The notes below the pieces were generated by a model that saw nothing but the letters and a program-made list of their open reading frames with translations, had not been told where the DNA came from and searched no databases. The translations under genes and the position numbers were made by a program. DNA of 11,143 bases from a virus. The stretch lies in UHGV virus genome UHGV-0105484, one strand, 5' to 3'. Positions 5,237-11,143 of this stretch are shown one piece after another; within the stretch, counting starts at the first letter, position 1, and each line of letters opens with the position of its first letter.

Positions 5237-5642
5237 GATCCCATTCATTTTCGTCAAAATCATCAAAGTGATGAATTTGTGATCTCCAGTCTCGATAATC
5301 TAAAAATTTCTGGGCGGTTACGCTTATTTTATCAAGCGTGAGTTCATCCTGAATTGAAAGAAGAAGTTCATCAAATTTCATCTCATTAATCTGTTTTGGC
5401 ATCCAGTGATGCTTCATCAGAATAAGGTGAACCAGAGCTTTTTTCCCATTCAACTGATTATAGGGAGTGCCGAATTTCTTCCGGTGCTCATGTAAGACAA
5501 GGTCCAGAAGAGTAAGTAATGTTGCCCTTGATTCAACTTTGCTTATTTCGACTGATGACACTACCCCACTGATTTCAATGCCCCGATACTTTCCAACATT
5601 TTCACAGTGGGATTTGTACAGCGTATAGATATTACCGGACAT
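5208..5642 (-). CDS. Hypothetical protein (144 aa), AT-rich accessory gene convergent with the 68-aa ORF
   Basis: ATG 5642 with SD AAGGA about 7 nt upstream. Soluble, no recognised motif. AT-rich relative to flanks. Its 3' end overlaps the 68-aa ORF by 29 bp. Confidence 0.5.
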   Translation of the reverse strand: MSGNIYTLYKSHCENVGKYRGIEISGVVSSVEISKVESRATLLTLLDLVLHEHRKKFGTPYNQLNGKKALVHLILMKHHWMPKQINEMKFDELLLSIQDELTLDKISVTAQKFLDYRDWRSQIHHFDDFDENEWDPNLSAQYLK

Positions 5643-5709: not shown

Positions 5710-6059
5710 GTCCACCTCGCCTGATGTGGCTAAAAGCAGGCACATAACAGCTAAGTATTTTCAACCAGAGAGAATTCTTAGCGTTGTGGTGAATGCGGCT
5801 CAGCGCACGCGGGTTAAGGTTGAGGCTGACAGTCGACCTTCTGTGGATACCCACCCGCCTGGTGTGCAACCTTCGCCAGGCACCGGGAGGCACCCGGCAC
5901 CACAACTTTATGCTGTGTTTTTACAAAACAGAGAAGAGCATCACCGGACGACGGGCTCATAACCCAATCCATCCGGGCGGCTGCCACCGCAGGTGTTCTT
6001 CTCTATTTTGTGGAGAAACTAATCGGCCTTGCAGGGTCGATATGATGAGGAGCAGCAAA

Positions 6060-7312: not shown

Positions 7313-7324
7313 TTTCATTACTGC

Positions 7325-7439: not shown

Positions 7440-7988
7440 ATGTCATTTATTAAAACTTTTTCCGGGAAGCATTTTTATTATGACAGGATAAATAAAGACG
7501 ACATCGTTATTAACGATATCGCGGTTTCTCTTTCAAATATCTGTCGCTTTGCAGGACATCTTTCACATTTCTACAGCGTCGCCCAACATGCAGTTCTTTG
7601 AAGCCAGCTGGTTCCGCAGGAATTTGCTTTTGAAGCATTAATGCATGATGCAACAGAAGCGTATTGCCAGGACATCCCCGCGCCACTGAAACGCCTTCTT
7701 CCTGACTATAAACGGATGGAAGAAAAAATAGACGCCGTAATCCGTGAGAAATACGGGTTACCCCCGGTTATGAGCACGCCCGTGAAATATGCCGATCTCA
7801 TCATGCTGGCAACCGAACGCCGCGATCTCGGGCTTGATGATGGCTCTTTCTGGCCTGTGCTGGAAGGTATCCCGGCAACAGAGATGTTCAACGTGATTCC
7901 ACTGGCACCGGGCCATGCCTACGGGATGTTTATGGAACGCTTTAAAGAGCTGCATAAGATACATAAACAATCCAGACAGCGAAATTAA
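7440..7988 (+). pseudogene. yfdR: YfdR-like HD-domain 5'-deoxynucleotidase interrupted by an in-frame TGA (codon 54, 7599-7601)
   Basis: ORFs 7413..7601 and 7641..7988 are in the same frame and together read MSFIKTFSGKHFYYD...FAGHLSHFYSVAQHAVL-[TGA]-SQLVPQEFAFEALMHDATEAY..., about 182 codons against about 178 aa for YfdR. The first fragment carries His residues and the second the HD dyad. Real ATG is 7440 (7413 is GTG). Confidence 0.65.
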
Positions 7989-8031
7989 CTAGTGAAATAG
8001 TTTTGTAGCAAAAGAAATGAGGTTATCAAAA

Positions 8032-8277
8032 ATGCTTCAAATGCTGACACTTGAGGAATGGGCTGCGGAAAAATTTAGGAGTAATCCTCCAAGTGTGTCC
8101 ACATTGCGTCGTTATGCTAAGCAGAATTTATTTTGTCCACCGGCAATGAAACAAGGTCGACTATGGCGAGTGCGTGAGGACGCAGAGTTAGTTGGGGAAT
8201 TAGTTACTCCTGTCATCAAGAAAAGTGATTCTATTATTCTACAAAGGATTTTAAGTAATGGCAGCCAGACCACGTAA
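8032..8277 (+). CDS. xis: Excisionase (lambda Xis family)
   Basis: MLQMLTLEEWAAEKFRSNPPSVSTLRRYAKQNLFCPPAMKQGRLWRVREDAELV... parallels lambda Xis (MYLTLQEWNARQRRPRSLETVRRWVRECRIFPPPVKDGREYLFHESAVKV). 3' end overlaps int by 20 nt, as in lambda. Alternative in-frame ATGs at 8017 and 8041. Confidence 0.8.
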   Translation: MLQMLTLEEWAAEKFRSNPPSVSTLRRYAKQNLFCPPAMKQGRLWRVREDAELVGELVTPVIKKSDSIILQRILSNGSQTT

Positions 8278-9385
8278 AAATAATGTTTCAGTCCCGAACT
8301 TGTATCCGCTCTATAGCAGAAAAGTAAATAAAGTCTATTGGCGATATAAGCATCCAGTGACCGGGAAGTTTCATTCTTTGGGCACAAACGAAGCTGAAGC
8401 CATTGCTATTGCCACTGAGGCCAATACACGCCTAGCTGAGCAAAGAACCCGGCAGATTCTGGCTATCAGTGACAGGATCGCAACCAGCAAAGGAAAAGCA
8501 ATCACAACGTCAACCTGGTTAGATCGCTATCAAGCAATCCAAGATGACAGACTGAAAAGTGGCGATATAAAGCTCAATACCTATAAACAGAAAGCCAAAC
8601 CAGTATCCTTGCTCAGGGAACGAGCAGGAATGAAGTTTATTTCATCCGTTGATGTAAGGGATATCGCACAATTGCTTGACGAGTATATCACCGCCGGGCA
8701 ACCGAGGATGGCGCAAGTAGTCCGCTCCGTTCTAATTGATGTATTCAAGGAGGCACAACACTATGGGGAAGTCCCTCCGGGCTATAATCCAGCACTGGCA
8801 ACCAAACAACCCAGAAGAAAAATTACCCGACAACGGTTAAGTCTTGAAGAATGGCAAAAAATCTTTGATATTGCAGATGCCAGTCATCGTTATATGGGGA
8901 ATGCCATGCTGTTAGCACTGGTTACCGCCCAGCGGTTAGGTGATATCTCACGTATGAAATTTAGCGATATTTGGGATGATCATCTTCACGTCATCCAAGA
9001 AAAAACAGGGAGCAAAATCGCCATCCCACTTTCCCTTCGCCTCAATGCGATTAACTGGAGTTTACGCGATGTAATAGCCCGCTGCCGTGACTATGCAGTC
9101 AGCCCATACCTGGTGCATTTTTTCCGTTCAACTTCACAAGCAGAACGTGGGGCACAGGTTAAATCCAATACATTGACGACGAATTTCAGTAAAGCGAGGG
9201 ATTTGGCAGAAATCGACTGGGGTGATGGCACACCCGCAACATTCCATGAACAAAGGTCTTTATCTGAGCGACTTTACGAAGCTCAGGGTGTCGACACCCA
9301 AAAACTTCTGGGGCATAAATCGCCTAATCAAACCGCTCGCTACCACGATGATCGCGGAAAGGAATGGATAAAGATTCAAAACTAG
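8258..9385 (+). CDS. int: Lambda-family tyrosine integrase
   Basis: 375 aa. N-terminus has an arm-binding-type region (PNLYPLYSRKVNKVYWRYKHPVTGKFHSLG). C-terminal catalytic motifs: Arg in TAQRLGD, HEQRSLSERLY (His-x-x-Arg box) and LLGHKSPNQTARYHDDRGKEW (Tyr nucleophile). Confidence 0.9.
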   Translation: MAARPRKNNVSVPNLYPLYSRKVNKVYWRYKHPVTGKFHSLGTNEAEAIAIATEANTRLAEQRTRQILAISDRIATSKGKAITTSTWLDRYQAIQDDRLKSGDIKLNTYKQKAKPVSLLRERAGMKFISSVDVRDIAQLLDEYITAGQPRMAQVVRSVLIDVFKEAQHYGEVPPGYNPALATKQPRRKITRQRLSLEEWQKIFDIADASHRYMGNAMLLALVTAQRLGDISRMKFSDIWDDHLHVIQEKTGSKIAIPLSLRLNAINWSLRDVIARCRDYAVSPYLVHFFRSTSQAERGAQVKSNTLTTNFSKARDLAEIDWGDGTPATFHEQRSLSERLYEAQGVDTQKLLGHKSPNQTARYHDDRGKEWIKIQN

Positions 9386-9398
9386 CGTAATTTATTTG

Positions 9399-9827
9399 TT
9401 AATTTCTAATAGACAAAAGGACTATTTGAATAACAATAAATATAATTTGTATTAAAGTTACAACTGCAAGAGTTAATGTAAGCGATGCGATAAAGTAGGT
9501 TTTAATACTTGAAAGACAAAGCAATGATAATAAAAGAGTAATACCAAGTTGAATAAAGCATACAAAATAAAAGATCATTGCGCCCTGTAAATATCCGTGT
9601 GCCCTAAATCTTTGTATGTTAGCATTATCTAAAGAAGTTAATATGACAATAAGAGCAAAAATGAGCGCCATCATTGCTGTCGCATACGATGCTAAAGCTG
9701 AACCAAGACCATCTAGATGTTCTTTGAAATTTACCCCCGGTAGAATATCATAGCGATATTTGTACACGCCAAAGCCAATAGCGTTTGTCATAATCGTTAA
9801 AACCACGGGGGGAAACCATTTAATCAT
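9399..9827 (-). CDS. RexB-like small integral membrane protein (4 predicted TM helices)
   Basis: 142 aa from ATG 9827, which lies 1 nt after the upstream stop (TGAnATG); the track's longer start is 9857. Four hydrophobic segments. Motif LPGVNFKEHLDGLGSALASYATAMMALIFAL matches lambda RexB as recalled (IPGVSFSAHRDGLGATLSSYAGTMIAIL); size matches RexB (144 aa). AT-rich. Confidence 0.6.
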   Translation of the reverse strand: MIKWFPPVVLTIMTNAIGFGVYKYRYDILPGVNFKEHLDGLGSALASYATAMMALIFALIVILTSLDNANIQRFRAHGYLQGAMIFYFVCFIQLGITLLLSLLCLSSIKTYFIASLTLTLAVVTLIQIIFIVIQIVLLSIRN

Positions 9828-9828
9828 T

Positions 9829-10644
9829 TCAGTATCCAGCAGCCCTAAGATCTGCATTATTAATAAAGTTAGTTACCATTTGGCTCTCTATAGATATATT
9901 TGCGTTTTTATTGACTATATCATAGATGCCACCCGTTGTCGCGACATGAAGCTCAATCGCTTGGTCTCCTAGCGCTTGCTTCGCCGCTATTGTCATTTCA
10001 CGGATACCTGCTGGTAAGTTGTTTAATGTTGGACTAATGGTATCCTTAATGTTTTTAAGATGTTTTGGTTTAATAGTAATTTCAAAACTGTCTACATCAT
10101 TAAGATCAACAGCTGTTATACCAAGAAAATTTGTCATCTCCCTTAACGCGAAAGGAGAATTAGGTTCTAATTTTACATTGATTTTCCCCATATGTGCATA
10201 CTGCAATGCCTGGGCTGGCGTAACAGTTTTCTTGATGGGCTCAAATCTTATATTTCTATTGTTATTCGTATTAAAGAAAAAGTTGTCATAATATTTACCA
10301 AAAGAGCCAATTTTGGGACCAAAGAGAGTCGAGCCATACCCTACACAACGATTAGAAATGTAAATATATGAGGCAAAAGCAACGTCCTGATTTTGTTGCA
10401 GCAATGCCGTAATGTCCTGGTAGTTGTTATTAACTCTATCGATGGTTTTTATAATGTCTGTATTATTTGTTTTTAAAAACATAAATACATCACCCAATAT
10501 ATGATGTATCGAGTAATACGAACCATCTAACCTAACTGTTTGTGTGTTGCTCTGAATGAGTTGCAGAAAAGAAGAGCTAAGAGAACTCGCAAGAGGTTGC
10601 CCGTTTTGCGGATAAAGATCATATTTGTAATAATTCGTTTTCAT
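9829..10644 (-). CDS. RexA-like soluble protein (271 aa)
   Basis: Complete ORF from ATG 10644 in a roughly 30% GC island. Size and position (upstream of and coupled to the membrane gene) match lambda RexA (279 aa). Recalled RexA motifs have counterparts: Y-x-Y-I-H, F-x-F-x-KTN (FMFLKTNN), T-x-FGP (STLFGP), I-x-IKPK (EITIKPK). Not confirmed by database search. Confidence 0.6.
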   Translation of the reverse strand: MKTNYYKYDLYPQNGQPLASSLSSSFLQLIQSNTQTVRLDGSYYSIHHILGDVFMFLKTNNTDIIKTIDRVNNNYQDITALLQQNQDVAFASYIYISNRCVGYGSTLFGPKIGSFGKYYDNFFFNTNNNRNIRFEPIKKTVTPAQALQYAHMGKINVKLEPNSPFALREMTNFLGITAVDLNDVDSFEITIKPKHLKNIKDTISPTLNNLPAGIREMTIAAKQALGDQAIELHVATTGGIYDIVNKNANISIESQMVTNFINNADLRAAGY

Positions 10645-10712
10645 CCCTAATCATCTTATGATTTATTGTAGGTAAACCTATTCTCTTCATTATGTGTTCA
10701 AAATCAATCGTT

Positions 10713-10744
10713 TTGATAAATTTTTTTGATAAATCTTTGATAAC
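10713..10744. promoter_or_regulatory. Three tandem TTGATAA repeats upstream of the rexA-like gene, near the icd junction
   Basis: ttgataaa (10713-10720), ttgataaa (10726-10733), ttgataac (10737-10744), spaced 13 and 11 bp, in the 160-bp gap between the rexA-like start and the icd stop. Confidence 0.4.
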
Positions 10745-10765
10745 CGTTCGAATACTAATAATATA

Positions 10766-10796
10766 AACGGGAACCATTTGGCTCCCGTTTTTGTTT
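10766..10796 (-). terminator. Hairpin terminator immediately downstream of icd (potentially bidirectional)
   Basis: 10-bp stem aacgggaacc / ggctcccgtt (one mismatch), loop attt. Followed on the plus strand by TTTTTGTTT and on the minus strand (icd sense) by a U/A-rich tail, 16 nt after the icd stop. Confidence 0.55.
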
Positions 10797-10811
10797 AACC
10801 CAGAATCTGGA

Positions 10812-11143
10812 TTACATATTTTCGATGATCGCATCACCAAACTCTGAACATTTCAGCAGTTTAGCGCCTTCCATCAAACGTTCGAAGTCATAGGTTACGG
10901 TCTTCGCATTGATTGCGCCTTCCATACCTTTAACAATCAGGTCTGCGGCTTCGGTCCAACCCATGTGGCGTAACATCATCTCAGCAGAGAGAATAATAGA
11001 GCCTGGGTTAACTTTGTCCTGACCGGCATATTTCGGCGCAGTACCGTGGGTAGCTTCAAACAGGGCGCATTCGTCACCGATGTTTGCGCCAGGGGCGATA
11101 CCGATACCGCCAACCTGCGCTGCCAGGGCGTCAGAAATGTAGT
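10812..11143 (-). CDS. icd: Isocitrate dehydrogenase (NADP), C-terminal fragment; prophage attachment target
   Basis: Minus-strand translation reads ...[96 protein letters not shown], the enterobacterial Icd C-terminus. Host-like GC content, unlike the adjacent AT-rich island. Confidence 0.95.

Follow-up and report, generated by a model that had tools for sequence, protein, structure and literature searches.

Where a prophage sits in the 3′ end of a host gene, the reading frame can run across the junction, and the point at which phage DNA gives way to host DNA has to be found inside the gene. This is the question raised by the end of UHGV-0105484, an 11,143-nt stretch of virus DNA that is called the window here. 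A phage integrase gene, two further genes and three short direct repeats precede a partial icd gene, and both the position of the junction and the role of the repeats have to be explained. That e14 and phage 21 integrate into icd and bring a replacement for its 3′ end has been known since the late 1980s, and the junction described here is of this known kind, the window being another e14-family case. The literature treats icd as a well-known prophage site whose 3′ end is replaced (PMC10111431, PMC6379469, PMC13626634). Positions 10645-11143 very probably constitute the attL junction (B-O-P′) of an e14-family prophage in icd, arm-site repeats and cargo included.

Layout of the junction

The icd 3′ end occupies the minus strand from 11143 down to the stop codon at 10812-10814, in a frame that is open up to the stop. 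The C-terminal 109 residues of isocitrate dehydrogenase are encoded by 10812-11143 and end in AIIENM. The integrase gene int is convergent with icd and is preceded by an excisionase gene (Table 1), whose product resembles XisE in a by-eye alignment; window position 8032 is the equivalent of the K-12 XisE start. Int is 93% identical to IntE of K-12, with a single substitution in the first 73 residues, which form the N-terminal arm-DNA-binding domain known from lambda Int (PF09003). Both the e14/phage 21 layout and the accessory island between int and the junction, which the original prediction had read from this DNA, are borne out: icd and int converge, Int is of the IntE type and genes for RexA- and RexB-like proteins fill the island.

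The intergenic spacer (10645-10811, 167 bp) contains the three repeats and a hairpin terminator. The hairpin is the same in strain GPEC617, whereas MSI001 and EC1515, which have an empty site, carry a different, native terminator. An 81-nt segment (10740-10820) that takes in the terminator and a second small hairpin folds with −25.7 kcal/mol (z = −4.5).

Table 1. Features of the junction and of the neighboring prophage genes (window coordinates).
Feature	Position	Strand	Basis or remark
Excisionase gene (xisE-like)	8017..8277	+	Pfam Exc, E = 1.8e-12
Tyrosine integrase gene, IntE type	8258..9385	+	Pfam Arm-DNA-bind_1 2.1e-37, Phage_integrase 7.4e-19
RexB-like membrane protein, cargo	9399..9857	-	Pfam RexB 1.4e-18 (68 bits); PADLOC RexB 5.3e-55
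RexA-like protein, cargo	9829..10644	-	Pfam RexA 3.5e-39 (135 bits); PADLOC RexA 1e-103
Homology to STnc150 (3′ 74 positions)	10710..10795	+	Rfam RF01402, 49.1 bits
Three direct repeats (T/C)TTTGATAA	10711-10719, 10724-10732, 10735-10743	+	Putative P′ arm-type Int sites, outer limit of the attachment site
Substitute icd terminator hairpin, prophage-supplied	10765..10790	-	11 pairs; also folds on the + strand, with one mismatch
Substitute icd 3′ end, last 51 codons and stop, P′ side of the core	10812..10965	-	MSI001 comparison, copy numbers, free phages
Common core TGGCGTAACAT, putative region of Int strand exchange	10966..10976	.	attL/attR alignments
Host-derived icd coding sequence, B side	10977..11143	-	Host matches, almost never duplicated

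Position of the crossover core

The window ends before the other prophage end, and its own attR and displaced icd fragment lie outside it. It was aligned with attL and attR of GPEC617, attL and attR of e14 in K-12, the empty-site strains MSI001 and EC1515 (in which iraM directly follows icd), a phage 21-like prophage and three free phage genomes. GPEC617, a chicken isolate, is the sole complete E. coli genome that matches across the cargo, and the window corresponds to the left end of its prophage. This prophage is e14-like, 39 kb long, and its far end consists of mcrA, pinE and a displaced icd fragment of 168 bp (L007:20828-20995) that adjoins iraM. A displaced icd fragment is also present at attR in K-12.

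At attR of both GPEC617 and K-12 e14, homology to icd extends to the equivalent of window position 10976 and is followed by unrelated P-arm DNA (TAGTTAGATG...). Between attL and attR of K-12 e14, identity is confined to the 11 bp at 10966-10976, from site 10965 to the loss of homology. This common core reads TGGCGCAGCAT in K-12 e14 and TGGCGTAACAT in the window. The icd piece of ~165 bp is also present in the free genomes of phage 21, 1H12 and ev017, where it ends one base earlier, at 10975.

The same boundary is found at the population level. The terminal 165 bp of icd occur at 7320 places in 5425 E. coli records (about 1900 extra copies) and the next 167 bp at 5432 places in 5428 records (almost no extra copies); the terminal piece is the sole part that is ever duplicated. 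On the host side, the 12 best matches listed for 10977-11143 among E. coli genomes are all 100% identical, and 110 records reach at least 99%. With MSI001, the one host allele compared across both icd segments, the window shows 0 differences in 10966-11143 and eight in 10812-10965. If differences were evenly spread, the probability of all eight falling into the first 154 of 332 bp would be about 0.002 (our own arithmetic).

Because the attL/attR, free-phage, copy-number and MSI001 comparisons place the boundary at the core, the original estimate of a crossover core within 10950-11000 was right. Its companion claim, that the terminator and about 160 bp of icd are phage-borne, agrees with the last 165 bp and the terminator lying on the prophage side. 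The start of the e14 prophage has likewise been placed 165 bp before the icd end (PMC13626634, PMC6379469).

An e14-family temperate prophage would thus have entered icd by Int-mediated site-specific recombination, with strand exchange inside the 11-bp core and cleavage at positions that we infer to lie within it. Everything left of the core would be the prophage side, made up of the replacement for the last 165 bp of icd, the terminator and three TTTTGATAA arm-type sites.

The three direct repeats

The repeated octamer TTTGATAA starts at 10712, 10725 and 10736 (+), and 0.8 copies are expected by chance in the whole 11-kb window. In the repeat at 10735, a C replaces the first T. The sole other exact copy of TTTGATAA lies at 8023-8030 (-), at the start of the xis frame, and may mean nothing.

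The position of the repeats is conserved across elements with different cargo. Four e14-type cargo variants carry three TTTTGATAA copies at 100, 87 and 76 bp or at 101, 88 and 77 bp from the icd stop. Their cargo consists of RexAB (the window and GPEC617), lit/ymfE/ymfD (K-12), DUF262 and another gene (689R6) or a remnant (S1-SRL). Similarity among the e14-type elements stops within a few bases of the outermost repeat, which is how the outer border of a functional attachment site should look.

Further copies are found on the P arm. In GPEC617 and K-12, a direct TTTTGATAA copy is located at +119 bp, counted from the core. Salmonella-type elements have an inverted copy at +98 bp, of which GPEC617 has a version with a single mismatch. 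Phage 21, which shares the core, carries TTTTGGGGAA at the three equivalent P′ positions and once more at +119. The GenBank record of phage 21 labels the three sites “attP ... 3 subsites P1P2P3; consensus YYTTCCCCAAAA”. The repeat motif therefore differs with the integrase type (TTTTGATAA versus TTTTGGGGAA, the two Int proteins being 60% identical) and not with the cargo. The arm sites of phage 21 are described as “dodecamer” sites. The implied attachment site spans about 393 bp in the window and 395 bp in phage 21, which fits the minimal phage 21 attP, reportedly delimited to 366-418 bp by Wang et al. in 1997.

The TTGATAA repeats are most likely Int arm binding sites rather than promoter elements, because Int carries an arm-binding domain, the position of the repeats is independent of the cargo, copies recur on the P arm, the motif changes with Int and the size of the resulting attachment site is appropriate. 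The N-terminal domain of Int would bind the three TTTTGATAA repeats, and the recombination complex would be assembled on these P′ sites and on one or two P-arm copies at the far end of the prophage. A literature search that stopped short of Wang et al. 1997 (J Bacteriol 179:5705) found no report of Int binding to TTTTGATAA. A third Int lineage at icd was sought to test the link between motif and Int, and the phage records found were all of the phage 21 type.

In E. coli S1-SRL-01-C (L005:14840-15400; also H44-H48), an e14-like prophage lies in tandem behind the remnant of another icd-integrated element. The inner junction of this arrangement holds a decayed icd piece and one remaining copy of the three repeats.

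Similarity to STnc150

The repeats and the hairpin are also part of a match to a known RNA family. STnc150 is a Salmonella sRNA that is encoded between icdA and STM1239, convergent with icdA, is detected as a ~90-nt band in Northern blotting and binds to ProQ (PMC2515195, PMC10964419). The window segment aligns with model positions 190-263 of 267 at an E-value of about 1e-8 (6e-8 to 2e-9), and its score is below the gathering threshold of 60 bits. The alignment contains two repeats, the spacer CCGTTCGAATACTAATAA and the hairpin, and the position relative to icd is the same, whereas the 5′ two-thirds of the family are absent in the window.

A likely origin of the family is suggested by Salmonella-type loci, which were obtained by a scan of viral contigs that share the arm spacer of the window; exact-pattern scans for the Salmonella locus in species-representative genomes gave nothing in one scan and chance matches in the other. 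Two of these loci (L031:6905-7170 and L030:3627-3905) match STnc150 over its full length with 337 and 331 bits. They adjoin isrC, and one of them also STnc510. In the first of the two, the last ~45 nt of an int gene immediately precede the repeats. An e14-like element without cargo (L035:13220-13360), whose Int is 87% identical to that of the window, scores 87.6 bits, above the threshold, and the scoring stretch is composed of the int 3′ end, the repeats and the terminator. No match was found at E ≤ 0.01 in K-12 e14, 689R6, S1-SRL, the empty site or phage 21; the similarity is therefore specific to the window-type arm. Since the loci in viral contigs show an int end, repeats and terminator, STnc150 looks like the fossil remains of the int 3′ end of an e14-like element, together with one to three TTTTGATAA arm repeats and a shared terminator, in which the hairpin would be the terminator common to int and icd. 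A fossil phage attachment arm is thus a likely origin for this Salmonella sRNA.

Whether the window itself encodes such an RNA is a different matter. The segment 10710-10795 (+) could be an STnc150-like small RNA gene in which the repeats act at the RNA level, a reading that is compatible with Int binding and that we consider unlikely. The Rfam match, the ~90-nt band and ProQ binding of STnc150 in Salmonella (PMC2515195, PMC10964419) and a plus-strand hairpin followed by UUUUUGUUU speak for it. The score below the gathering threshold, the restriction of the match to the 3′ 74 of 267 model positions with absence of the 5′ part of the family and the result of a promoter scan, which found no acceptable plus-strand promoter upstream of 10710, speak against it. 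The plus-strand stem also contains an A-C mismatch where the icd-sense stem has a G-U pair. In addition, the repeat number varies from one to three in Salmonella-type loci, which suggests that the repeats are unnecessary for the RNA.

There is, in the same way, only a small chance that the lysogen also makes an STnc150-like plus-strand RNA from its attachment arm, with the Int sites doubling as part of a regulatory RNA. Support comes from the composition of the full-length loci (int end, repeats and terminator), the above-threshold score of L035 and the 3′ homology of the window. If this were true, Int binding sites would be part of a regulatory RNA that is moved from host to host by a prophage. 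An expressed RNA of this type in the window is possible but unlikely, because cargo separates int from the repeats, the stem has the A-C mismatch, the 5′ part is missing and K-12 e14 and phage 21 give no match.

A second sRNA family is touched elsewhere in the window, where 5785-5904 (+) gives a sub-threshold match to STnc100 (35.6 bits, gathering threshold 47). In two other e14-like prophages (L010, L005), the corresponding position gives longer matches, of 42 bits.

Promoter or IHF sites as unlikely readings of the repeats

The original prediction had mentioned Int arm sites and preferred to see the TTGATAA repeats as promoter elements of the rexA-like gene; this ranking should be reversed. 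In favor of the promoter reading, the rexA-like start codon follows the repeats at a distance of 67-100 bp both in the window and in GPEC617, and TTGATA resembles a −35 hexamer. However, TTGATA is on the plus strand and the rexA-like gene on the minus strand, the only promoter-like match that uses a repeat faces icd, and a promoter scan of 10500-11000 found no minus-strand promoter. In K-12 e14, the gene whose 3′ side adjoins the same repeats is ymfD; in 689R6, it is a convergent gene, and in phage 21 and L035, it is int. No gene starts beside the repeats in any of these four. With a motif that tracks the integrase type and not the cargo, a function as promoter or operator elements of the RexA-like gene is very unlikely.

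That the repeats are IHF binding sites instead of Int arm sites is less probable still and was rejected, since a single one of the three (10730-10742 on the minus strand) agrees with the IHF consensus WATCAANNNNTTR, the total of two matches in the window is also attained by 35 of 200 shuffles and is thus not unusual, and the phage 21 equivalents TTTTGGGGAA have no IHF core.

History of the replacement icd end

Two observations count against a junction at the core. Taken alone, they would put it at the icd stop codon; all of the icd reading frame in the window would then be of host origin, and no icd piece would belong to the element. The first is the empty-site allele of EC1515, which agrees with the window at 163 of the 165 bp that end with the stop codon, divergence setting in only beyond it. 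The second is the comparison with the sister prophage of GPEC617, in which the recently shared block stops at the stop codon (between 10736 and 10818) and not at the core.

Several findings make a boundary at the stop codon highly improbable all the same. Sister lysogens carry the displaced 165-bp fragment at the other prophage end, with the boundary at 10976, and free phage genomes contain the icd fragment. Furthermore, the upstream, host part of icd in the window and its 165-bp part match different allele classes: the former is identical to the class represented by MSI001, and the classes switch at the core. The codon for E414 is common to the e14-type attL copies and absent from two empty-site alleles and the displaced copy of GPEC617, a point that is qualified by the displaced copy of K-12, which has E too. 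In detail, window positions 10821-10823 encode this Glu, fourth from the C-terminus (AIIENM), as do the attL copy and the displaced copy of K-12; AIIKNM, with Lys, is found in two empty-site alleles, the displaced copy of GPEC617 and phage 21.

The preferred junction at the core leaves the two observations to be explained, and they point to a separate history of the 165-bp piece. Between the window and GPEC617 there are three differences in 7953-10817 (2865 bp, 99.9% identity), a block that takes in xis, int, both cargo genes, the repeats and the terminator. Beyond it, there are 10 differences in 10818-10965 and seven in 10986-11127. The DNA flanking 7953-10817 on both sides is 3-5% diverged from GPEC617 (L001). 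Because this 2.9-kb block is nearly identical and both flanks are diverged, the comparison suggests that the integration-plus-cargo module was exchanged recently as one unit.

The 165-bp piece has its best E. coli matches at 98.8% identity (two differences), and all 28 of the matches listed are single-copy; EC1515, the one inspected among these 28, has an empty site. The piece thus shows two differences from the empty-site allele of EC1515 versus 10 from the GPEC617 sister prophage. Since a replacement piece is homologous to host DNA, it would be open to ordinary homologous recombination with host alleles, and the piece appears to have been swapped in this manner. The displaced copy could have taken part in gene conversion, a RecA-dependent excision could have been imprecise, or the int-cargo module could have been replaced, with int and icd serving as flanking homology. 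Following such an exchange, the sequence of the piece would no longer follow prophage ancestry. The loss of e14 in evolution experiments was reanalyzed in 2026 in a study that describes such chimeric icd alleles as common in natural isolates and names recurrent recombination, horizontal transfer and deletions as their causes (PMC13626634).

This history bears on how such junctions are mapped. The original prediction had proposed an alignment of icd with non-lysogens and had held that identity up to the stop codon would speak against a junction inside icd. The alignment yields both outcomes: divergence from MSI001 begins at the core, as predicted, and divergence from EC1515 only past the stop. 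Near-identity to the stop codon was thus found with EC1515, and the junction is at the core nonetheless. The start of divergence was rejected as a decisive test, as MSI001 and EC1515 give opposite answers; it is unreliable because the 165-bp piece has its own history. Where the replacement gene end has been scrambled with host alleles, mapping by the start of divergence can point to the wrong place and should be used with caution.

Cargo between the attachment site and int

The cargo is a divergent RexA/RexB pair, as judged from family matches whose Pfam scores exceed the curated cut-offs for both proteins. At the megablast level, the cargo DNA was found in one of 5426 complete E. coli genomes (GPEC617), and the icd part of the window was matched by all 5426. 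The pair would have entered the DNA between int and the attachment site, immediately beyond the outermost arm site. In other e14-like prophages, the same slot is occupied by lit/ymfE/ymfD, DUF262, an AAA ATPase or hypothetical genes. The slot from int to the outermost arm site is therefore variable and holds mostly defense-like cargo that differs among e14-like prophages. Variable and often defense-related cargo adjoining phage attachment sites is the general picture, and the slot in the window fits it.

Comparison with known systems

The window and e14 of K-12 have in common the icd target, the 165-bp replacement of the icd 3′ end, the position of the 11-bp core, three TTTTGATAA repeats equally far from the stop and a slot for cargo that separates int from the arm sites. 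They differ in the cargo, which is lit/ymfE/ymfD in e14 and RexA/RexB-like in the window, and in the core (TGGCGCAGCAT and TGGCGTAACAT, respectively). The spacer between repeats and stop and the terminator of e14 are of another type, and those of the window are nearer to the Salmonella STnc150 locus. In addition, e14 is a 15-kb remnant, whereas the closest complete relative of the window, in GPEC617, is a full-length prophage.

The attP of phage 21 (Jouyvirus; OL657228) has the same icd core and likewise contains an icd 3′ piece and a terminator, with three direct repeats ~230 bp from the core on the P′ arm and one ~119 bp from it on the P arm. In contrast to the window, its repeat is TTTTGGGGAA, in keeping with the more distant Int, no cargo lies between int and the repeats, and the icd homology is one base shorter.

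The attP of lambda contains the arm-type sites P1, P2 and P′1-P′3, with three in tandem on the int-proximal side and one or two on the other arm, and lambda Int belongs to the same family of arm-binding domains as the Int of the window. The motif and the target are unlike those of the window. The arm sites of the window lie ~230-265 bp from the core, compared to ~50-80 bp in lambda, because the replacement icd end is placed in between.

Lambda also provides the reference for the cargo. Both proteins of the window match the RexA and RexB families, and their genes are adjacent on one strand in the order rexA-rexB, which makes them a candidate abortive-infection pair that may exclude superinfecting phage. 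The RexA-like protein is, however, only about 24.5% identical to lambda RexA, and the pair occupies the cargo slot between int and the attachment site, whereas rexA and rexB of lambda lie next to the repressor gene.
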